From NCBI RefSeq assembly GCF_046105845.1, contig NZ_CP151004.1: a stretch of 64,000 nucleotides of DNA; one strand, 5' to 3'. The notes below the pieces were generated by a model. That model saw only the letters and a list, made by a program, of their open reading frames with translations, ran no database searches and was not told the origin of the DNA. The DNA is from Escherichia coli (GTDB taxonomy: Bacteria; Pseudomonadota; Gammaproteobacteria; Enterobacterales; Enterobacteriaceae). The number at the start of each line of letters is the position of its first letter. Within the stretch, counting starts at the first letter, position 1. Made by a program: the position numbers and the translations under genes. Below are positions 615 to 21,886 of the stretch, piece by piece.

Positions 615-632
615 CTGTTAGTCACTTTTAGT
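615..632 (+). promoter_or_regulatory. Putative Pho box (PhoB site) of the phnC promoter, with -10 GATAAT at 648..653
   Basis: CTGTTAG-TCAC-TTTTAGT, two 7-nt direct repeats with 4-nt spacer, about 17 nt upstream of a GATAAT -10 and 60 nt upstream of phnC ATG; phn operon is a known Pho regulon member. Confidence 0.5.
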
Positions 633-691
633 TAACAAAATCGTCACGATAATCCGCCACGATGGAGCCACTTTTTTAGGGAGGCTGCATC

Positions 692-1480
692 ATGCAAACG
701 ATTATCCGTGTCGAGAAGCTCGCCAAAACCTTCAATCAGCATCAGGCGCTGCATGCGGTTGATCTGAACATTCATCACGGTGAAATGGTGGCTCTGCTTG
801 GGCCGTCCGGTTCCGGCAAATCCACCCTTTTACGTCATTTAAGCGGTTTGATTACCGGCGATAAATCTGCCGGTAGCCATATCGAGCTGCTGGGCCGCAC
901 AGTCCAGCGCGAAGGCCGCCTGGCCCGCGATATCCGCAAAAGCCGCGCCAACACCGGCTACATCTTCCAACAATTCAACCTGGTGAATCGCCTGAGCGTA
1001 CTGGAGAACGTGCTGATTGGCGCGCTCGGCAGCACGCCATTCTGGCGCACCTGTTTTAGTTGGTTCACCCGCGAGCAGAAACAGCGCGCGTTACAGGCGC
1101 TGACCCGTGTTGGCATGGTGCACTTTGCCCATCAGCGCGTTTCCACCCTCTCCGGCGGACAGCAGCAGCGTGTGGCAATTGCCCGTGCGCTGATGCAGCA
1201 GGCGAAGGTGATTCTGGCCGATGAACCCATCGCCTCGCTGGACCCGGAATCGGCGCGCATCGTGATGGACACCCTGCGCGACATTAACCAGAACGACGGC
1301 ATTACCGTGGTCGTCACGCTGCATCAGGTGGATTACGCCCTGCGCTACTGCGAACGCATCGTCGCCCTGCGCCAGGGGCACGTCTTCTACGACGGCAGCA
1401 GCCAACAGTTTGATAACGAACGTTTTGACCATCTCTACCGCAGCATCAACCGCGTCGAAGAAAACGCGAAAGCTGCCTGA
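692..1480 (+). CDS. phnC: Phosphonate ABC transporter ATP-binding protein PhnC
   Basis: ORF track 262 aa; Walker [13 protein letters not shown] signature LSGGQQQR; GGGAGG RBS upstream. Confidence 0.95.
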
Positions 1481-1504: not shown

Positions 1505-2521
1505 ATGAACGCTAAGATAATTGCCTCGCTGGCCTTCACCAGCATGTTCAGCCTCAGCACCCTGTTAAGCCCGGCGCACGCCGAAGAGCAGGAAAAGGCG
1601 CTGAATTTCGGCATTATTTCAACGGAATCACAGCAAAACCTGAAACCGCAATGGACGCCGTTCTTGCAGGATATGGAGAAGAAGCTGGGCGTAAAGGTCA
1701 ACGCCTTCTTTGCCCCGGACTACGCGGGCATTATCCAGGGGATGCGCTTCAATAAAGTGGATATCGCCTGGTACGGCAATCTGTCGGCGATGGAAGCGGT
1801 GGATCGCGCCAACGGTCAGGTCTTCGCCCAGACGGTCGCGGCGGATGGATCGCCAGGTTACTGGAGCGTGTTGATCGTCAACAAAGACAGCCCGATCAAC
1901 AACCTGAACGATCTGCTGGCGAAGCGGAAAGATCTCACCTTCGGTAATGGCGATCCTAACTCCACCTCTGGCTTCCTCGTCCCCGGTTACTACGTCTTCG
2001 CCAAAAACAATATCTCCGCCAGCGACTTCAAGCGCACCGTCAATGCCGGGCATGAAACCAACGCGCTGGCCGTCGCCAACAAGCAGGTGGATGTGGCGAC
2101 CAACAACACCGAGAACCTCGACAAGCTGAAAACCTCCGCACCGGAGAAGCTCAAAGAGCTGAAAGTGATCTGGAAATCGCCGCTGATCCCAGGCGATCCG
2201 ATCGTCTGGCGCAAAAATCTGTCCGAAACCACCAAAGACAAGATCTACGACTTCTTTATGAATTACGGCAAAACCCCGGAAGAGAAAGCGGTGCTGGAAC
2301 GCCTGGGCTGGGCCCCGTTCCGCGCCTCCAGCGACCTGCAACTGGTGCCGATTCGCCAGCTAGCACTGTTTAAAGAGATGCAGGGCGTGAAAAGCAATAA
2401 AGGGCTGAATGAGCAGGACAAGCTGGCGAAAACCACCGCGATTCAGGCGCAGCTGGATGACCTGGACCGCCTGAACAACGCGTTAAGCGCGATGAGTTCG
2501 GTGAGTAAAGCGGTGCAGTAA
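1505..2521 (+). CDS. phnD: Phosphonate ABC transporter periplasmic binding protein PhnD
   Basis: ORF track 338 aa; signal peptide then binding-protein fold; operon context. Confidence 0.95.
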   Translation: MNAKIIASLAFTSMFSLSTLLSPAHAEEQEKALNFGIISTESQQNLKPQWTPFLQDMEKKLGVKVNAFFAPDYAGIIQGMRFNKVDIAWYGNLSAMEAVDRANGQVFAQTVAADGSPGYWSVLIVNKDSPINNLNDLLAKRKDLTFGNGDPNSTSGFLVPGYYVFAKNNISASDFKRTVNAGHETNALAVANKQVDVATNNTENLDKLKTSAPEKLKELKVIWKSPLIPGDPIVWRKNLSETTKDKIYDFFMNYGKTPEEKAVLERLGWAPFRASSDLQLVPIRQLALFKEMQGVKSNKGLNEQDKLAKTTAIQAQLDDLDRLNNALSAMSSVSKAVQ

Positions 2522-2525
2522 ATCG

Positions 2526-2611
2526 TAAGTCGGATAAGACGCCACGGCGTCGCATCCGACAATGTGCAGACGTTGATGCCGGATGCGGTGCAAGCACCTT
2601 ATCCGGCCTAC
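2526..2611. repeat. BIME: two REP elements between phnD and phnE
   Basis: gtcggataagacgcc...ggcgtcgcatccgac and gccggatgcgg...ccttatccggcctac palindromic units. Confidence 0.7.
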
Positions 2612-2626
2612 AGACCGGAGCCAAAC

Positions 2627-3406
2627 ATGCAAACCATCACCATCGCCCCACCCAAGCGCAGCTGGTTCTCGCTTCTGAGCTGGGCCATTGTACTCGCCGT
2701 GCTGGTCGTCTCGTGGCAGGGCGCGGAAATGGCCCCGCTCACGCTGATTAAAGACGGCGGCAACATGGCGACGTTCGCTGCCGACTTCTTCCCGCCCGAT
2801 TTCAGCCAGTGGCAGGATTACCTCACCGAAATGGCCGTCACGCTGCAAATCGCCGTCTGGGGCACCGCGCTGGCGGTGGTTCTCTCCATCCCCTTCGGCC
2901 TGATGAGCGCCGAAAACCTGGTGCCGTGGTGGGTTTACCAGCCCGTTCGCCGCCTGATGGACGCCTGCCGCGCCATTAACGAGATGGTCTTCGCCATGCT
3001 GTTCGTGGTCGCCGTCGGTCTCGGTCCGTTCGCTGGCGTACTGGCGCTGTTTATCCACACCACCGGCGTGCTCTCCAAACTGCTTTCCGAAGCGGTAGAA
3101 GCAATTGAACCCGGTCCGGTGGAAGGTATTCGCGCCACTGGTGCCAACAAGCTCGAAGAGATCCTCTACGGCGTGCTGCCGCAGGTGATGCCGCTGCTGA
3201 TCTCCTACTCCCTCTATCGCTTCGAATCCAACGTCCGTTCGGCCACCGTTGTTGGCATGGTCGGCGCTGGCGGGATCGGCGTCACCCTGTGGGAAGCGAT
3301 TCGCGGTTTCCAGTTCCAGCAAACCTGCGCCCTGATGGTGCTGATTATCGTCACGGTCAGCCTGCTGGATTTCCTCTCTCAACGGTTGCGTAAGCACTTT
3401 ATCTGA
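2627..3406 (+). CDS. phnE: Phosphonate ABC transporter permease PhnE (intact reading frame)
   Basis: ORF track 2564..3406; start re-assigned to ATG 2627 ([12 protein letters not shown]...) because the upstream extension lies in REP sequence; continuous to stop. Confidence 0.9.
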
Positions 3407-3426
3407 TAAGCGAGGCATTGATATCT

Positions 3427-4152
3427 ATGCACTTGTCTACACATCCGACCAGCTACCCAACACGCTATCAGGAGATAGCCGCAAAACTTGAGCAGGAGCT
3501 TCGTCAACACTACCGCTGCGGCGACTATCTTCCCGCCGAGCAGCAACTGGCGGCGCGCTTTGAGGTGAACCGCCACACCCTGCGCCGCGCCATCGACCAA
3601 CTGGTGGAAAAAGGCTGGGTACAGCGCCGTCAGGGCGTCGGCGTGCTGGTGCTGATGCGCCCGTTCGATTACCCGCTCAACGCCCAGGCGCGTTTTAGCC
3701 AGAACCTGCTGGATCAGGGCAGCCATCCCACCAGCGAAAAACTGCTGTCGGTGCTGCGCCCGGCCTCCGGTCACGTCGCTGACGCGCTGGGGATAACCGA
3801 GGGCGAGAACGTTATCCACCTGCGCACCCTGCGCCGGGTCAACGGCGTCGCGCTCTGTTTAATCGACCACTACTTTGCGGACCTCACCCTCTGGCCGACG
3901 CTGCAACGCTTCGACAGCGGCTCGCTGCACGATTTTCTGCGCGAGCAAACGGGGATTGCGCTGCGCCGCAGCCAGACGCGGATCAGCGCCCGCCGCGCCC
4001 AGGCCAAAGAGTGCCAGCGTCTTGAAATCCCGAATATGTCGCCGCTGCTGTGCGTGCGCACCCTTAACCACCGTGACGGTGAAAGCAGCCCGGCGGAGTA
4101 CTCCGTCAGCCTGACGCGCGCCGACATGATTGAATTCACTATGGAGCACTGA
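3427..4152 (+). CDS. phnF: GntR-family transcriptional regulator PhnF
   Basis: ORF track 3418..4152 begins with TTG; ATG at 3427 gives 241 aa MHLSTHPTSYP... Confidence 0.9.
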   Translation: MHLSTHPTSYPTRYQEIAAKLEQELRQHYRCGDYLPAEQQLAARFEVNRHTLRRAIDQLVEKGWVQRRQGVGVLVLMRPFDYPLNAQARFSQNLLDQGSHPTSEKLLSVLRPASGHVADALGITEGENVIHLRTLRRVNGVALCLIDHYFADLTLWPTLQRFDSGSLHDFLREQTGIALRRSQTRISARRAQAKECQRLEIPNMSPLLCVRTLNHRDGESSPAEYSVSLTRADMIEFTMEH

Positions 4153-4605
4153 ATGCACGCAGATACCGCGACCCGCCAGCACTGGATGTCCGTACTGGCA
4201 CACAGCCAACCGGCTGAACTGGCAGCCCGCCTGAAGGCGCTGAACATCACTGCCGACTATGAAGTAATCCGCGCCGCTGAAACCGGCCTGGTGCAGATTC
4301 AGGCGCGGATGGGTGGCACCGGCGAACGCTTTTTTGCTGGCGACGCCACGCTCACCCGCGCCACCGTACGCCTGACTGACGGCACGCTCGGCTACAGCTG
4401 GGTGCTGGGGCGCGACAAACAGCACGCCGAACGCTGCGCGCTGATTGACGCGCTGATGCAGCAAACCCGCCATTTTCAAAACTTATCAGAAACCCTTATT
4501 GCCCCGCTGGACGCTGACCGTATGGCACGCATTGCCGCACGCCAGGCCGAAGTGAACGCCAGCCGGGTCGACTTCTTTACGATGGTTCGCGGAGATAACG
4601 CATGA
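4153..4605 (+). CDS. phnG: C-P lyase complex subunit PhnG
   Basis: ORF track 150 aa; operon context. Confidence 0.95.
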
Positions 4606-5186
4606 CCCTGGAAACCGCTTTTATGCTTCCTGTGCAGGATGCCCAGCACAGTTTTCGTCGCCTGTTAAAGGCCATGAGCGAGCCGGGCGTGATTGTCGCC
4701 CTGCATCAGCTCAAACGCGGCTGGCAGCCGCTGAATATCGCCACCACCAGCGTGCTGCTGACGCTGGCCGATAACGACACGCCGGTGTGGCTTTCTGCGC
4801 CATTAAGTAACGATATCGTCAGCCAGAGCCTGCGTTTTCATACCAACGCGCCGCTGGTCAATCAGCCGGAACTGGCGACCTTCGCGGTAACGGATGAGGC
4901 GATTTCCAGCGAACAGCTTAACGCCCTTTCCAGCGGCACCGCTGTTGCGCCAGAAGCGGGCGCGACGCTGATTTTACAGGTCGTCAGCCTGAGCGGCGGG
5001 CGCATGCTGCGCCTTACTGGCGCGGGTATTGCCGAAGAACGAATGATCGCTCCGCAGCTGCCGGAGTGCATTCTGCACGAACTTACCGAGCGCCCGCACC
5101 CGTTCCCGCTCGGCATCGACCTGATCCTGACCTGCGGCGAGCGGCTGCTGGCTATCCCGCGAACCACTCATGTGGAGGTGTGCTGA
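4602..5186 (+). CDS. phnH: C-P lyase complex subunit PhnH
   Basis: ORF track 194 aa; ATGA overlap with phnG stop. Confidence 0.95.
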
Positions 5187-6250
5187 TGTACGTTGCCGTG
5201 AAAGGGGGCGAGAAGGCGATCGACGCCGCCCACGCCCTGCAAGAGAGCCGACGCCGGGGCAATACCGATTTGCCTGAACTGAGCGTCGCCCAGATTGAAC
5301 AGCAGCTTAATCTTGCAGTAGATCGCGTGATGACCGAAGGCGGCATTGCCGACCGCGAACTGGCGGCGCTGGCGCTGAAACAGGCCAGCGGCGATAACGT
5401 CGAAGCGATTTTCCTGCTACGCGCCTACCGCACCACGCTGGCGAAGCTGGCGGTAAGCGAGCCGCTCGACACCACGGAGATGCGTCTCGAACGGCGTATT
5501 TCAGCGGTTTATAAAGATATTCCCGGCGGCCAGCTGCTTGGCCCAACCTACGACTACACCCATCGCCTGCTCGATTTCACCCTGCTGGCAAACGGCGAAG
5601 CGCCGACGCTGACCACCGCCGACAGCGCACAACAGCCGTCGCCGCACGTTTTCAGCCTGCTGGCGCGTCAGGGGCTGGCGAAGTTTGAAGAAGATAGCGG
5701 CGCACAGCCGGACGACATCACCCGCACGCCGCCGGTTTACCCCTGCTCACGTTCTTCCCGTTTGCAGCAGCTCATGCGCGGAGACGAAGGCTATTTGCTG
5801 GCGCTGGCCTACTCCACCCAGCGTGGTTACGGACGCAATCATCCGTTCGCAGGCGAAATCCGCAGCGGCTATATCGACGTGTCGATTGTGCCGGAAGAGC
5901 TGGGATTTGCGGTGAACGTCGGCGAACTGCTGATGACCGAATGTGAAATGGTCAACGGTTTTATCGACCCACCGGATGAGCCGCCGCACTTCACGCGCGG
6001 CTACGGGCTGGTGTTCGGCATGAGCGAGCGCAAAGCGATGGCAATGGCGCTGGTTGACCGCGCTCTGCAAGCCCCGGAGTACGGCGAGCACGCGACAGGC
6101 CCGGCGCAGGATGAAGAGTTCGTGCTGGCGCATGCCGACAACGTCGAAGCCGCAGGCTTTGTCTCGCACCTTAAACTCCCGCACTACGTCGATTTCCAGG
6201 CCGAACTGGAGCTACTCAAACGTCTGCAACAGGAGCAGAACCATGGCTAA
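5186..6250 (+). CDS. phnI: C-P lyase complex subunit PhnI
   Basis: ORF track 5066..6250; start re-assigned to ATG 5186 ([13 protein letters not shown]...), 354 aa, overlapping phnH stop. Confidence 0.9.
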   Translation: MYVAVKGGEKAIDAAHALQESRRRGNTDLPELSVAQIEQQLNLAVDRVMTEGGIADRELAALALKQASGDNVEAIFLLRAYRTTLAKLAVSEPLDTTEMRLERRISAVYKDIPGGQLLGPTYDYTHRLLDFTLLANGEAPTLTTADSAQQPSPHVFSLLARQGLAKFEEDSGAQPDDITRTPPVYPCSRSSRLQQLMRGDEGYLLALAYSTQRGYGRNHPFAGEIRSGYIDVSIVPEELGFAVNVGELLMTECEMVNGFIDPPDEPPHFTRGYGLVFGMSERKAMAMALVDRALQAPEYGEHATGPAQDEEFVLAHADNVEAAGFVSHLKLPHYVDFQAELELLKRLQQEQNHG

Positions 6251-7088
6251 TCTGAGCGGCTACAACTTTGCTTACCTCGACGAGCAGACCAAACGCATGA
6301 TCCGCCGCGCCATCTTAAAAGCGGTAGCGATCCCCGGTTATCAGGTACCTTTTGGCGGGCGCGAGATGCCGATGCCGTACGGCTGGGGAACTGGTGGTAT
6401 CCAGCTTACCGCCAGCGTGATTGGCGAAAGCGACGTGTTGAAGGTGATTGACCAGGGCGCGGATGACACCACCAACGCCGTGTCGATTCGCAACTTCTTT
6501 AAGCGCGTGACCGGGGTAAACACCACTGAACGTACGGACGATGCGACGCTTATCCAGACGCGCCACCGCATCCCCGAAACGCCGCTGACCGAAGATCAGA
6601 TCATTATTTTCCAGGTGCCGATCCCGGAACCGCTGCGCTTTATCGAGCCGCGCGAAACGGAGACCCGCACTATGCACGCGCTGGAGGAGTACGGCGTGAT
6701 GCAGGTGAAACTGTATGAAGATATCGCCCGCTTCGGTCATATCGCCACCACTTATGCCTATCCGGTGAAGGTGAACGGGCGCTACGTGATGGACCCGTCG
6801 CCGATCCCGAAATTCGATAACCCGAAAATGAACATGATGCCCGCCCTGCAGCTGTTCGGCGCAGGGCGCGAGAAGCGCATCTATGCGGTGCCGCCGTTTA
6901 CCCGCGTGGAAAGTCTCGATTTCGACGATCACCCGTTCACCGTTCAGCAGTGGGATGAGCCATGCGCCATCTGCGGATCGACCCACAGCTATCTCGACGA
7001 AGTGGTGCTGGATGACGCCGGAAACCGCATGTTTGTCTGCTCCGATACCGATTATTGCCGCCAACAGAGCGAGGCAAAAAACCAATGA
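6243..7088 (+). CDS. phnJ: C-P lyase core subunit PhnJ
   Basis: ORF track 6054..7088; start re-assigned to ATG 6243 (MANLSGYNFAYLDEQ...), 281 aa; C-terminal Cys cluster. Confidence 0.9.
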   Translation: MANLSGYNFAYLDEQTKRMIRRAILKAVAIPGYQVPFGGREMPMPYGWGTGGIQLTASVIGESDVLKVIDQGADDTTNAVSIRNFFKRVTGVNTTERTDDATLIQTRHRIPETPLTEDQIIIFQVPIPEPLRFIEPRETETRTMHALEEYGVMQVKLYEDIARFGHIATTYAYPVKVNGRYVMDPSPIPKFDNPKMNMMPALQLFGAGREKRIYAVPPFTRVESLDFDDHPFTVQQWDEPCAICGSTHSYLDEVVLDDAGNRMFVCSDTDYCRQQSEAKNQ

Positions 7089-7843
7089 ATCAACCGTTAC
7101 TTTCGGTCAATAACCTGACCCACCTTTACGCGCCGGGCAAAGGCTTTAGCGATGTCTCTTTTGATTTATGGCCGGGGGAAGTGCTGGGCATCGTCGGGGA
7201 ATCCGGCTCCGGGAAGACCACGCTGCTGAAATCAATTTCCGCGCGTCTGACGCCGCAGCAAGGGGAGATTCACTATGAAAACCGTTCCCTCTATGGCATG
7301 AGCGAGGCCGACCGCCGTCGCCTGCTGCGCACCGAATGGGGCGTGGTGCATCAGCATCCACTCGACGGCCTGCGCCGCCAGGTGTCGGCAGGCGGCAATA
7401 TCGGCGAGCGGCTGATGGCGACCGGGGCGCGTCATTACGGCGATATTCGCGCCACCGCGCAGAAGTGGCTGGAAGAGGTGGAGATTCCCGCTAACCGGAT
7501 CGACGACCTGCCAACCACCTTTTCCGGCGGCATGCAGCAGCGTTTGCAGATTGCCCGCAACCTGGTGACGCATCCGAAGCTGGTGTTTATGGACGAACCA
7601 ACCGGCGGGCTGGATGTATCCGTACAGGCGCGCCTGCTCGACCTGCTGCGCGGCCTGGTGGTGGAGCTGAACCTGGCGGTAGTGATTGTTACCCACGATC
7701 TGGGCGTCGCCCGCCTGCTGGCGGACCGTTTGCTGGTGATGAAACAGGGGCAAGTGGTGGAGAGTGGGTTAACCGACCGCGTGCTCGACGACCCGCACCA
7801 CCCGTACACCCAGTTGCTGGTGTCATCGGTTTTGCAGAATTGA
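7085..7843 (+). CDS. phnK: C-P lyase accessory ATP-binding protein PhnK
   Basis: ORF track 7055..7843; ATG 7085 ([11 protein letters not shown]...), 252 aa; Walker [10 protein letters not shown]. Confidence 0.9.
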
Positions 7844-7847
7844 GCCA

Positions 7848-7934
7848 GTGCCGGATACGGCGTAAACGCCTTATCCGGCCGACAAATGCGCTCCCCGTAG
7901 GTCGGATAAGACGCGTCAGCGTCGCATCCGACAC
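7848..7934. repeat. BIME: two REP elements between phnK and phnL
   Basis: gtgccggatacggcgtaaacgccttatccggc and gtcggataagacgcgtcagcgtcgcatccgac palindromic units. Confidence 0.7.
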
Positions 7935-7953
7935 CCGAACCACGAGGCGAAAA

Positions 7954-8634
7954 ATGATTAACGTACAAAACGTCAGTAAAACCTTCATCCTGCACCAGCA
8001 AAACGGCGTGCGCCTGCCCGTCTTACAACGTGCCTCGCTCACCGTCAACGCAGGCGAATGCGTGGTGCTTCACGGCCACTCCGGCAGCGGAAAATCAACC
8101 CTGCTGCGCTCGCTGTACGCCAACTATCTGCCCGATGAAGGTCAAATCCAGATCAAACACGGTGATGAGTGGGTAGACCTGATCACCGCGCCAGCCCGCA
8201 AAGTGGTGGAGATCCGCAAAACCACCATCGGCTGGGTGAGCCAGTTTCTGCGCGTTATCCCGCGTATTTCGGCACTGGAAGTGGTGATGCAGCCGCTGCT
8301 CGATACCGGCGTACCGCGTGAAGCCTGCGCCGCTAAAGCCGCCCGATTACTGACGCGCCTGAACGTGCCTGAACGCCTGTGGCACCTGGCACCATCGACC
8401 TTCTCCGGCGGCGAACAGCAGCGCGTCAACATCGCCCGTGGCTTTATCGTCGACTATCCGATTCTGCTGCTGGATGAACCCACCGCCTCGCTGGACGCTA
8501 AAAACAGCGCCGCGGTGGTGGAACTAATTCGCGAAGCCAAAGCCCGCGGCGCGGCCATCGTCGGTATCTTCCATGACGAAGCCGTACGCAATGACGTCGC
8601 CGACCGCCTGCACCCGATGGGAGCCTCTTCATGA
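7954..8634 (+). CDS. phnL: C-P lyase accessory ATP-binding protein PhnL
   Basis: ORF track 7840..8634; ATG 7954 ([11 protein letters not shown]...), 226 aa; the upstream extension is REP sequence; Walker [10 protein letters not shown]. Confidence 0.9.
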
Positions 8635-9767
8635 TTATCAATAACGTCAAACTGGTGCTGGAAAATGAAGTGGTGCACGGTTCACTGGAAGTACAGGATG
8701 GCGAAATTCGGGCCTTTGCCGAAAGCCAGAGCCGCCAGCCGGAAGCGATGGACGGCGAAGGTGGCTGGCTACTGCCCGGACTGATTGAGCTGCATACCGA
8801 CAACCTCGATAAATTCTTCACCCCGCGCCCGAAAGTCGACTGGCCCGCCCATTCGGCGATGAGCAGCCACGACGCGCTGATGGTGGCAAGCGGCATCACC
8901 ACCGTACTGGACGCCGTGGCGATTGGTGATGTGCGCGACGGCGGCGATCGGCTGGAGAATCTGGAGAAGATGATCAACGCCATCGAAGAGACGCAGAAAC
9001 GCGGCGTCAACCGCGCCGAGCACCGCCTGCACCTGCGCTGCGAACTGCCGCACCACACCACGTTGCCGCTGTTTGAAAAACTGGTGCAGCGCGAACCGGT
9101 GACGCTGGTATCGCTGATGGACCACTCGCCAGGCCAGCGCCAGTTCGCCAATCGCGAGAAGTATCGCGAATATTATCAGGGCAAATATTCCCTCACCGAT
9201 GCGCAGATGCAGCAGTACGAAGAAGAGCAATTGGCGCTCGCCGCACGCTGGTCGCAGCCAAATCGCGAAACCATCGCCGCAATGTGCCGCGCGCGACACA
9301 TTGCCCTCGCCAGCCACGATGACGCCACGCACGCCCACGTTGCCGAATCTCACCAGCTTGGCAGCGTGATCGCCGAATTTCCCACCACGTTCGAAGCGGC
9401 AGAAGCCTCGCGCAAGCATGGCATGAACGTGCTGATGGGCGCGCCGAATATCGTGCGCGGCGGTTCGCACTCCGGCAACGTGGCGGCCAGTGAACTGGCG
9501 CAGCTTGGCCTGCTGGATATCCTCTCTTCCGACTACTACCCCGCCAGCCTGCTCGATGCGGCATTTCGCGTCGCCGATGACGAGAGCAACCGCTTTACGC
9601 TGCCGCAGGCGGTGAAGCTGGTGACTAAAAATCCGGCGCAGGCGCTTAATCTTCAGGATCGCGGAGTGATTGGCGAGGGCAAACGCGCCGACCTGGTGCT
9701 GGCGCATCGCAAGGGCAACCACATTCATATCGACCACGTCTGGCGTCAGGGTAAAAGGGTGTTCTGA
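8631..9767 (+). CDS. phnM: Amidohydrolase-family PhnM (ribosyl-phosphonate triphosphate diphosphohydrolase)
   Basis: ORF track 378 aa; operon context. Confidence 0.95.
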
Positions 9768-10324
9768 TGACGGGAAAACTGATTTGGTTAATGGGGGCCT
9801 CTGGCTCCGGAAAAGACAGTCTGTTGACGGAACTCCGCCAGCGGGAACAAACTCAGTTACTGGTGGCGCATCGCTACATCACGCGCGATGCCAGCGCCGG
9901 AAGCGAAAATCATATCGCCCTGAGCGAGCAGGAGTTTTTTACCCGCGCGGGGCAAAATCTGCTGGCCTTAAGCTGGCACGCCAACGGCCTGTATTATGGC
10001 ATCGGCGTCGAGATTGACCTCTGGCTGCACGCTGGATTTGACGTGGTGGTCAACGGCTCACGCGCCCATCTGCCGCAGGCGCGGGCGCGCTATCAATCGG
10101 CGCTGCTGCCCGTTTGTTTACAGGTTTCGCCAGAGATCCTGCGCCAGCGCCTGGAAAACCGTGGTCGTGAAAATGCCAGTGAAATTAACGCCCGACTAGC
10201 ACGCGCTGCCCGCTATACTCCTCAGGATTGTCTTACGCTCAATAATGACGGCAGCCTGCGCCAGTCGGTCGACACGCTGCTGACGCTGATTCATCAGAAG
10301 GAGAAAAACCATGCCTGCTTGTGA
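9767..10324 (+). CDS. phnN: Ribose 1,5-bisphosphate phosphokinase PhnN
   Basis: ORF track 185 aa; P-loop GASGSGKDS. Confidence 0.95.
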
Positions 10325-10745
10325 GCTTCGCCCGGCTACGCAGTACGACACCGACGCAGTTTACGCGCTGATTTGTGAGCTAAAACAGGCGGAGTTTGAC
10401 CACCATGCGTTTCGCGTGGGGTTTAACGCCAATCTGCGCGACCCGAACATGCGCTACCATTTGGCGCTGCTGGATGGCGAAGTTGTCGGCATGATCGGCC
10501 TGCATTTGCAGTTTCATCTGCATCATGTCAACTGGATCGGCGAAATTCAGGAACTGGTGGTGATGCCGCAGGCGCGCGGTCTGAACATCGGCAGTAAATT
10601 ACTGGCATGGGCAGAAGAAGAAGCCCGCCAGGCCGGGGCAGAAATGACCGAGCTTTCCACCAACGTCAAGCGCCACGACGCGCACCGTTTCTATCTGCGC
10701 GAAGGCTACGAGCAGAGCCACTTCCGCTTCACCAAGGCGCTGTAA
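10311..10745 (+). CDS. phnO: Aminoalkylphosphonate N-acetyltransferase PhnO (GNAT family)
   Basis: ORF track 144 aa; 14-nt overlap with phnN. Confidence 0.95.
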
Positions 10746-10746
10746 C

Positions 10747-11505
10747 ATGAGCCTGACCCTCACACTTACTGGCACTGGCGGCGCACAGGGCGTTCCCGCA
10801 TGGGGCTGTGAGTGCGCGGCCTGCGCCAGAGCGCGGCGCTCACCGCAGTATCGCCGCCAGCCATGCAGCGGCGTCGTGAAGTTTAACGACGCGATCACCC
10901 TGATCGACGCCGGGCTGCACGATCTCGCCGATCGCTGGTCGCCCGGATCGTTCCAGCAGTTTTTGCTGACGCACTACCATATGGATCACGTGCAGGGGCT
11001 GTTTCCGCTGCGCTGGGGCGTGGGCGATTCGATCCCGGTCTACGGCCCGCCGGATGAACAGGGCTGCGACGATCTGTTTAAACATCCGGGCCTGCTTGAT
11101 TTCAGCCACACGATGGAACCGTTTGTGGTGTTTGATTTGCAGGGGTTGCAGGTCACGCCCCTGCCGCTCAACCATTCGAAACTCACTTTCGGCTATCTAC
11201 TGGAAACGGCACATAACCGGGTGGCGTGGCTGTCTGACACCGCAGGCCTGCCGGAAAAAACGCTGAAATTTTTACGCAATAATCAGCCACAGGTAATGGT
11301 GATTGATTGCAGCCACCCACCGCGCGAGGATGCACCGCGTAATCACTGTGATTTAAACACCGTGCTGGCGCTGAATCAGGTTATCCGCTCGCCACGGGTG
11401 ATTCTGACCCATATCAGCCACCAGTTTGATGCGTGGCTGATGGAAAACGCACTGCCGTCGGGGTTTGAGGCGGGGTTTGATGGGATGGAGATTGGGGTGG
11501 AGTGA
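10747..11505 (+). CDS. phnP: Metallo-beta-lactamase-fold phosphodiesterase PhnP
   Basis: ORF track 252 aa; HxHxDH motif ([10 protein letters not shown]). Confidence 0.95.
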
Positions 11506-11937: not shown

Positions 11938-12255
11938 TCAATTTCTCCGCTGCTCTATTGCCGTAATCGCCTCCACGCGTTGTTGATGACGACCGCCTTC
12001 GTACTGCGCGCCCAGCCACGCATCCACAATCATTTTTGCCAGTTCGAGGCCAACCACTCGTGAACCAAAAGCCAGTGCAACTTCACTGGCGTAATGCGGA
12101 TAATCAGTGCGCTCTGACGACCTGGTTTCTTTATCAATCCCCTCACTCATTGACCATGAATAAAAGGCTGGCACAGCAACGCAGAATCCTGCGGTGCCAG
12201 CGACATGACCGCCCATTGCTCCGGTACGTTTTTTAAAAAGAAACATCGGTTGCAT
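11938..12255 (-). pseudogene. rpiB: rpiB remnant (ribose-5-phosphate isomerase B) with diverged N-terminus and internal in-frame deletion
   Basis: ORF track 105 aa; C-terminal 43 aa FGSRVVGLELAKMIVDAWLGAQYEGGRHQQRVEAITAIEQRRN and segment SSERTDYPHYAS match RpiB as remembered, but the catalytic middle segment and native N-terminus are absent. Confidence 0.7.
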
Positions 12256-12507
12256 TGATAAATTGTGCTCAGTATTTGCCGAAGTACAATATATATAATA
12301 AATATATAAAATACCTCATATTATTTGCAGAGATAATAAACTCGCGTACTTTTCCCTCTTCAGCACAAATGCCTAATAAAATGGCTCGCTCCGCTCACAC
12401 TTCCACTTATTAAAGTCGCAAATTCCCAATTATGATAACGCCAGCTTCAAATGACGTATTTTGCATGGACTACATATTTACGACATAAATGATAAATGGA
12501 GATTTAT

Positions 12508-19738: not shown

Positions 19739-21886
19739 ATGAAAAAAGTCGTCACGGTTTGCCCCTATTGCGCATCAGGTTGCAAAATCAACCTGGTCGT
19801 CGATAACGGCAAAATCGTCCGGGCGGAGGCAGCGCAGGGGAAAACCAACCAGGGTACCCTGTGTCTGAAGGGTTATTATGGCTGGGACTTCATTAACGAT
19901 ACCCAGATCCTGACCCCGCGCCTGAAAACCCCCATGATCCGTCGCCAGCGTGGCGGCAAACTCGAACCTGTTTCCTGGGATGAGGCACTGAATTACGTTG
20001 CCGAGCGCCTGAGCGCCATCAAAGAGAAGTACGGTCCGGATGCCATCCAGACGACCGGCTCCTCGCGTGGTACGGGTAACGAAACCAACTATGTAATGCA
20101 AAAATTTGCGCGCGCCGTTATTGGTACCAATAACGTTGACTGCTGCGCTCGTGTCTGACACGGCCCATCGGTTGCAGGTCTGCACCAATCGGTCGGTAAT
20201 GGCGCAATGAGCAATGCTATTAACGAAATTGATAATACCGATTTAGTGTTCGTTTTCGGGTACAACCCGGCGGATTCCCACCCAATCGTGGCGAACCACG
20301 TAATTAACGCTAAACGTAACGGGGCGAAAATTATCGTCTGCGATCCGCGCAAAATTGAAACCGCGCGCATTGCTGACATGCACATTGCACTGAAAAACGG
20401 CTCGAACATCGCGCTGTTGAATGCGATGGGTCATGTCATTATTGAAGAAAACCTGTACGACAAAGCGTTCGTCGCTTCCCGTACAGAAGGCTTTGAAGAG
20501 TATCGTAAAATCGTTGAAGGCTACACGCCGGAGTCGGTTGAAGATATCACCGGCGTCAGCGCCAGTGAGATTCGTCAGGCGGCGCGGATGTATGCCCAGG
20601 CGAAAAGCGCCGCCATCCTGTGGGGCATGGGTGTAACCCAGTTCTACCAGGGCGTGGAAACCGTGCGTTCTCTGACCAGCCTCGCGATGCTGACTGGTAA
20701 CCTCGGTAAGCCGCATGCGGGTGTAAACCCGGTTCGTGGTCAGAACAACGTGCAGGGTGCCTGCGATATGGGCGCGCTGCCGGATACGTATCCGGGATAC
20801 CAGTACGTAAAAGATCCGGCTAACCGCGAGAAATTCGCCAAAGCCTGGGGCGTGGAAAGCCTGCCTGCTCATACCGGTTATCGCATCAGCGAGCTGCCGC
20901 ACCGCGCAGCGCATGGCGAAGTGCGTGCCGCGTACATTATGGGCGAAGATCCGCTGCAAACTGACGCGGAGCTGTCGGCAGTACGTAAAGCCTTTGAAGA
21001 TCTGGAACTGGTTATCGTTCAGGACATCTTTATGACCAAAACCGCGTCGGCGGCGGATGTTATTTTACCGTCAACGTCGTGGGGCGAGCATGAAGGCGTG
21101 TTTACTGCGGCTGACCGTGGCTTCCAGCGTTTCTTCAAAGCAGTTGAACCGAAATGGGATCTGAAAACGGACTGGCAAATCATCAGTGAAATCGCCACCC
21201 GTATGGGTTATCCGATGCACTACAACAACACCCAGGAGATCTGGGATGAGTTGCGTCATCTGTGCCCGGATTTCTACGGTGCGACTTACGAGAAAATGGG
21301 CGAACTGGGCTTCATTCAGTGGCCTTGCCGCGATACTTCAGATGCCGATCAGGGGACTTCTTATCTGTTTAAAGAGAAGTTTGATACCCCGAACGGTCTG
21401 GCGCAGTTCTTCACCTGCGACTGGGTAGCGCCAATCGACAAACTCACCGACGAATATCCGATGGTACTGTCAACGGTGCGTGAAGTTGGTCACTACTCTT
21501 GCCGTTCGATGACCGGTAACTGTGCGGCACTGGCGGCGCTGGCTGATGAACCTGGCTACGCACAAATCAATACCGAAGACGCCAAACGTCTGGGTATTGA
21601 AGATGAGGCATTGGTTTGGGTGCACTCGCGTAAAGGCAAAATTATCACCCGTGCGCAGGTCAGCGATCGCCCGAACAAAGGGGCGATTTACATGACCTAC
21701 CAGTGGTGGATTGGTGCCTGTAACGAGCTGGTTACCGAAAACTTAAGCCCGATTACGAAAACGCCGGAATACAAATACTGCGCCGTGCGCGTCGAGCCGA
21801 TCGCCGATCAGCGCGCCGCCGAGCAGTACGTGATTGACGAGTACAACAAGTTGAAAACTCGCCTGCGCGAAGCGGCACTGGCGTAA
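19739..21886 (+). CDS. fdhF: Formate dehydrogenase H (selenoprotein); in-frame UGA at 20156..20158 read as selenocysteine
   Basis: ORF track pieces 19739..20158 and 20207..21886 are in one frame separated by TGA; combined 715 aa; CxxCxxGC 4Fe-4S motif at N-terminus; ...CARV-U-HGPSVAG context. Confidence 0.95.
20156..20204 (+). promoter_or_regulatory. SECIS element (SelB-binding mRNA hairpin) directly 3' of the fdhF UGA
   Basis: UGA followed by cacggcccatcggttgcaggtctgcaccaatcggtcggtaatggcg, which can fold as a stem-loop. Confidence 0.85.

Follow-up and report, generated by a model that had tools for sequence, protein, structure and literature searches.

In-frame two-unit phnE in a complete phn operon of Escherichia coli: very probably the normal wild-type state at an accidental mutational hotspot

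The phn operon and its phnE gene

The stretch of DNA analysed here (64,000 nucleotides from E. coli, referred to as the window) carries the genes from phnC to phnP close to its beginning. The block from phnF to phnP (3427..11505) comprises the regulator, the C-P lyase pathway and accessory genes, and it is preceded by the genes of the PhnCDE phosphonate ABC transporter. The features of the locus are the following:

615..636, plus strand: element of the phnC promoter, likely a Pho box, CTGTTAGTCAC TTTTAGTTAAC, located by alignment with K-12
692..1480, plus strand: phnC (ATPase), identical to the gene of strain E300010, no internal stops
1505..2521, plus strand: phnD (periplasmic binding protein), identical to the gene of E300010, no internal stops
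2627..3406, plus strand: phnE, encoding the 259-aa permease component of the PhnCDE phosphonate ABC transporter, from the ORF and its translation
3427..4152, plus strand: phnF, open, annotated length
4153..4605, plus strand: phnG, open, annotated length
4602..5186, plus strand: phnH, open, annotated length
5186..6250, plus strand: phnI, open, annotated length
6243..7088, plus strand: phnJ, open, annotated length
7085..7843, plus strand: phnK, open, annotated length
7954..8634, plus strand: phnL, open, annotated length
8631..9767, plus strand: phnM, open, annotated length
9767..10324, plus strand: phnN, open, annotated length
10311..10745, plus strand: phnO, open, annotated length
10747..11505, plus strand: phnP, open, annotated length

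The 14 genes from phnC to phnP are all open, without internal stops, and they have the lengths found in E300010, a close relative, from which they differ by 0-17 nt per gene. There are no differences from phnC to phnI, 7 in phnL and 17 in phnP, a distribution that suggests a recombination mosaic inside the operon. Further downstream (11.5-36 kb), no complete genome matches by more than 98.7%.

The frame of phnE runs open from the ATG at 2627 to the TGA at 3406, with the motif GGAG located 5 nt upstream of the start codon. The encoded protein scores 311.3 bits against the NCBIfam equivalog profile TIGR01097, above the curated cutoff of 216.7, and its residues 16-258 correspond to positions 8-251 of the 252 positions of the profile; this score, together with the adjoining phnC, phnD and phnF-phnP genes, identifies it as PhnE. 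At the DNA level the gene is 100% identical to the annotated phnE of E300010 (protein WP_001193496.1), and, among 5,426 complete genomes of E. coli, 5,394 matched phnE with identities of 94-100%. Compared with K-12, 27 sites differ along the 780 nt, mostly silent. Compared with E. coli B REL606, the classical Phn+ reference, there are 22 nucleotide differences, all but one silent, and the proteins are identical in 258 of 259 residues; the single substitution, I21V, looks harmless.

In the earlier note on this DNA, phnE had been read as uninterrupted between 2627 and 3406 and the locus had been considered to be in the functional state. The former is what the open ORF of 259 aa gives, and the latter is well supported, as far as can be judged from sequence, by the TIGR01097 score, the near identity to PhnE from E. 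coli B and the open genes from phnC to phnP. Transport of phosphonates by this permease would be expected, given that it is nearly identical to its counterpart in E. coli B, a Phn+ strain.

Upstream of phnC, three bases are not those of K-12. Position 631 (A in K-12, G here) is among these and lies in the latter half of the likely Pho box; this half reads TTTTAATTAAC in K-12 and TTTTAGTTAAC in the window, a one-base difference that looks harmless. The segment 615..636 is presumably the Pho box reportedly described in Makino 1991 and in the work of Wanner. PhnCDE is also able to take up phosphate (PMC6469041).

Two of the intergenic spacers of the operon contain a pair of REP palindromes (BIME-like), namely the phnD-phnE spacer (2525-2611), which differs from K-12 at 3 bases, and the phnK-phnL spacer (7850-7932). 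The Rfam family naRNA4 (RF02564) matches the first of these spacers at 2528-2608, on the minus strand, with 64.6 bits.

The repeat tract of phnE and the K-12 frameshift site

Within phnE, two near-identical units of 8 bp follow each other at 3032-3047, in the context ...ggtccgttc GCTGGCGT ACTGGCGC tgtttatcc.... The elements of this tract are:

3032..3039, plus strand: 8-bp unit 1, GCTGGCGT, codons A136 and G137 plus the first two bases of V138; identical to the repeated unit of K-12
3040..3047, plus strand: 8-bp unit 2, ACTGGCGC; K-12, E. coli B and the majority of other E. coli have GCTGGCGC here (alignments)
3040..3040, plus strand: silent change GTG>GTA at the third position of Val138, which interrupts the repeat (alignments)

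The unit boundaries given here (3032-3039 and 3040-3047) follow the literature. The earlier note had placed them one base further on (ctggcgta at 3033-3040 and ctggcgct at 3041-3048), and the two imperfect 8-mers that it quoted agree exactly with the sequence at 3033-3048. The tract codes for A-G-V-L-A-L, in a membrane segment located upstream of the EAA coupling loop. The change of GTG to GTA at 3040 is silent, since G-type alleles (L007 and L009) share the protein accession WP_001193496.1 with the A-type allele; with it, the period-8 homology is CTGGCG (6 nt) instead of GCTGGCG (7 nt).

A four-way alignment places the extra 8 bp of K-12 MG1655 exactly at this tract, immediately adjoining 3032: the K-12 sequence is GTTC GCTGGCGT GCTGGCGT GCTGGCGC TG, that of the window GTTC GCTGGCGT ACTGGCGC TG. 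Being homologous to the point of insertion in K-12, the tandem GCTGGCGT from about nt 406 of the ORF onward belongs to the slippage site. According to the translation, the additional unit shifts the K-12 frame after residue 140 and leads to a stop at about codon 190, in the stretch that holds the EAA coupling loop in the intact PhnE; in RefSeq, the phnE gene of K-12 MG1655 is a frameshifted pseudogene of 788 bp. The number of units sets the state of the gene: with two units the frame is kept, and the alleles with three (K-12, Res13), four or seven units are annotated as frameshifted.

According to the literature, this 8-bp duplication makes K-12 cryptic for phosphonate use, and slippage removes it again in the Phn+ derivatives (PMC3463581; PMC4759930; PMC6469041). 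In a revertant that was sequenced, 5'-GCTGGCGT had been lost at positions 407-414 of the ORF (PMC6469041). The belief expressed in the earlier note that the extra unit of K-12 sits at this site is thus confirmed by the alignment, by the frameshift annotation of RefSeq and by the published revertant, and alignment to the alleles of both reference strains gives three units in K-12, two in E. coli B and two in the window; a K-12 frameshift located elsewhere is excluded by the alignment. The primary publications are Makino et al. 1991 (PMID 1840580) and Iqbal et al. 2004 (PMID 15342581). The functional phnE allele of E. coli B, phn(EcoB), was reportedly described by Makino et al. in 1991, in a work that reportedly described the phnE frameshift of K-12 as well. 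A 'reversible phase variation' of K-12 phnE was reportedly proposed by Iqbal et al. in 2004, with Phn+ variants said to appear at above 1e-2 and with an off allele that was reportedly called unique to K-12. The frameshift of K-12 and its reversion by slippage are therefore already known (1991, 2004), and what the window contains is the common wild type.

Like phn(EcoB) from E. coli B, the allele of the window has two 8-bp units at ORF nt 406-421, an intact frame of 259 aa and the same operon of 14 genes. Unlike E. coli B (GCTGGCGT GCTGGCGC), its second unit starts with A in place of G, and the two units match in 6/8 positions instead of 7/8. With phn(EcoK0) from K-12 it has in common the gene, the site and the unit GCTGGCGT, and it corresponds to the state that K-12 reaches after losing one unit. 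However, K-12 carries three perfect units and is frameshifted, whereas the window carries two imperfect units and remains in frame.

The homology available for misalignment at an offset of one unit is 15 nt in the three units of K-12, 7 nt in the canonical two units and 6 nt (CTGGCG) in the two units of the window. Period-8 matches of at least 6 nt occur 12 times in the 64-kb window, and at least one of them appears in 21% of the dinucleotide-preserving shuffles of phnE. Tandem Repeats Finder, applied to 2600-3450, did not report the phnE tract and detected only an unrelated period of 12 nt at 3177-3201. A repeat of this kind is not in excess of chance expectation and is statistically unremarkable. 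As the statistics of the repeat are so weak, the meaning of the tract comes entirely from its positional homology to the K-12 hotspot.

Unit number among complete E. coli genomes

The distribution of the alleles was determined by megablast in 5,426 complete E. coli genomes, using short exact queries, each of which by design has a 28-mer in common with the intended allele and with no other. Since an exact 28-mer is needed and the flanks are polymorphic, about 890 of the 5,394 genomes with phnE, which have other flank haplotypes, stay unclassified in this census. The canonical two-unit tract was found in 2,259 genomes with the flanks CCGTTC...TGTTTATCCA and in another 516 with other flanks. The two-unit A-variant of the window, detected with an exact 32-mer containing the A, is present in 408 of the 5,426 genomes, and a second, independent silent interruption (GCTGGTGT, also with two units and of the O157:H7 type) is present in 309. 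In O157:H7 LSU61 this second interruption is a GGC>GGT change in unit 1, which gives GCTGGTGT GCTGGCGC and leaves 5 nt of contiguous offset homology. Two units are the normal wild-type state of E. coli and not a special 'on' phase.

Three perfect units were found in 1,012 of the 5,426 genomes (about 19%), and 999 of these alleles are at least 99% identical to the K-12 allele and form one haplotype; the other 13 fall below 99%. Multiple origins of the three-unit allele were considered and set aside, as the data point to essentially one haplotype. The SNP that separates K-12 from an otherwise identical natural haplotype is carried by only 359 genomes, so that, among those with the off allele, roughly 650 are not K-12. 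These carriers come from pig, chicken and poultry, human, dog, water (including seawater) and other sources. The off allele is found mostly outside K-12, and this natural spread is at odds with the view, reportedly held by Iqbal et al. in 2004, that it is restricted to K-12.

Unit number does vary in other alleles. The two-unit form on the three-unit haplotype is limited to 5 records from about three lineages, including one MG1655 derivative, which are probably 3>2 revertants. Four units were found in one genome, SW07163, isolated from wastewater in Galapagos (L013, NZ_CM129852.1, 1-796); its gene has 796 bp and is frameshifted, and it lies exactly on the natural three-unit haplotype, which indicates a further +8 step from three units. 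Seven units (6x GCTGGCGT plus GCTGGCGC) were also found in a single genome, OkiPb01713, from bovine faeces (L011, NZ_AP042682.1, locus 586-680). Its phnE has 820 bp and is annotated as frameshifted, and its haplotype, 22 SNPs away from the K-12 type, is unrelated to it, which points to an independent expansion. A further gene annotated as 'frameshifted', the 775-bp phnE of BS-01, was left aside because its scattered indels are typical of assembly error.

All the changes of unit number seen in this census sit on uninterrupted GCTGGCGT tracts. A three-unit derivative of the A-variant was found in 0 of the 5,426 genomes with a query that assumes slippage in the CTGGCG register, and a one-unit allele was likewise found in 0 of 5,426 with a query that assumes the flanks CCGTTC...CTGTTTATCC. 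Unit number is stably inherited over evolutionary time and does not flicker, because 999 of the 1,012 three-unit alleles belong to one haplotype on which only 5 two-unit records are found.

Interpretation of the tract and other features of the window

It can be concluded with high confidence that the window carries a normal in-frame, two-unit phnE within a complete phnCDEFGHIJKLMNOP operon, and that the tract is an accidental mutational hotspot and not a maintained switch. The presence of two near-identical 8-bp units at 3032-3047 would be an accident of codon choice. In the K-12 lineage, a third unit was gained at this site by replication slippage, with the consequent loss of the frame and of the permease, so that K-12 uses phosphonates only cryptically. 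The two-unit allele keeps its frame, and phosphonates would be imported and used upon induction of the Pho regulon. A slippage event of +8 bp or -8 bp would also switch off phnE in the window, which is possible in principle.

The frequency of misalignment mutagenesis climbs steeply with the length of the homology. Given this dependence, a homology of 6 nt should make the window tract a poorer slippage substrate: slippage would be rarer than in most E. coli, since no more than 6 bp of offset homology remain after the silent GTG>GTA change, and it would be far rarer than the 3>2 reversion of K-12, which has 15 bp. This expected reduction derives from the general effect of homology length and not from data on the allele itself. 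Related to this, the 0 expansions among the 408 A-variant genomes lack statistical power, as only about two independent expansions from two units are visible among roughly 2,800 or more pure-tract genomes; with so few expansions anywhere, zero among 408 is expected either way, and the census shows no difference in rate.

The synonymous sites of the tract probably drift freely between lineages. Two silent interruptions have been fixed independently (about 13% of genomes), which argues that no selection keeps the repeat perfect. In the simple-sequence contingency loci of Haemophilus, Neisseria and Campylobacter, which vary in phase through the number of their repeats and switch at about 1e-2 to 1e-5, the tracts are long and perfect, and their repeat character is conserved. 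The phnE tract resembles them in principle, in that the unit length of a coding repeat is not divisible by three and slipped-strand mispairing within it toggles the frame. Unlike those loci, phnE has two imperfect units in place of a long perfect tract conserved among strains, the perfection of the repeat is not conserved between lineages (interruptions in 408 + 309 genomes) and the number of units is stably inherited.

An extension of the hotspot reading, which is possible but for the moment tentative and rather doubtful, is that the purity of the tract, besides the number of units, decides which E. coli lineages can silence phnE. The lineages with GTA (408 genomes) or with the O157-type GGT (309) might then be effectively locked on, and the pure tracts might be expandable to three, four or seven units. 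The off state, with its roughly 650 carriers other than K-12, is far from specific to K-12.

It is quite improbable that the tract of the window is a true phase-variation switch, by which phnE-off cells (three units) and phnE-on cells (two units) arise at high frequency. Natural genomes do show two, three, four and seven units, and the 5 probable revertants on the three-unit haplotype, from about three lineages, are what such a switch would leave. However, the window has only two imperfect units whose 6 nt of homology are matched by chance 12 times along its length, neither an expanded nor a contracted form of its allele was found among the 5,426 genomes, the three-unit alleles belong almost entirely (999/1,012) to a haplotype with so few two-unit records, and silent interruptions have been fixed in large lineages, which is unexpected under selection for switching. 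In principle, the capacity for on/off switching that the earlier note ascribed to this repeat is plausible; for the allele of the window it finds little support and was probably overstated, in view of the 6-nt homology and of the 0 length variants for 408 genomes.

A selective origin of the G>A change at 3040, as an anti-slippage 'lock' by which this lineage would hold phnE permanently on, is hardly credible: every expansion seen (three, four and seven units) lies on uninterrupted GCTGGCGT tracts, there are 0 three-unit derivatives for the 408 A-interrupted genomes (in a search that covered, of the two interrupted tracts, the A-variant) and one G:C pair fewer in the misaligned intermediate should lower slippage, but the comparison is powerless with about two independent expansions from two units anywhere, the loss of homology is of one base only (from 7 nt to 6 nt) and, with 27 mostly silent differences from K-12 in 780 nt, one difference in 16 nt is close to what neutral drift would produce.

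The practical value of these results lies in annotation: the source strain should be scored as competent for phosphonate utilisation. Besides, the three-unit off allele, present in about 19% of the complete genomes and stable on one haplotype, is relevant to the use of phnE as an example of phase variation. Its natural spread, as well as the four-unit and seven-unit alleles, may merit a separate look.

Some other features of the window can be mentioned. At 12076-12283, about 208 nt replace the 6.8-kb alsRBACEK operon together with the greater part of rpiB, which in REL606 are located between yjdP and yjcS; at this als-rpiB site, the close relative E300010 has an annotated 318-nt remnant of the RpiB family. 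The Hfq-binding sRNA sraL was detected at 40502-40642 (153 bits) and a SECIS element of the fdhF type at 20151-20205 (87 bits), both of them ordinary features of E. coli.
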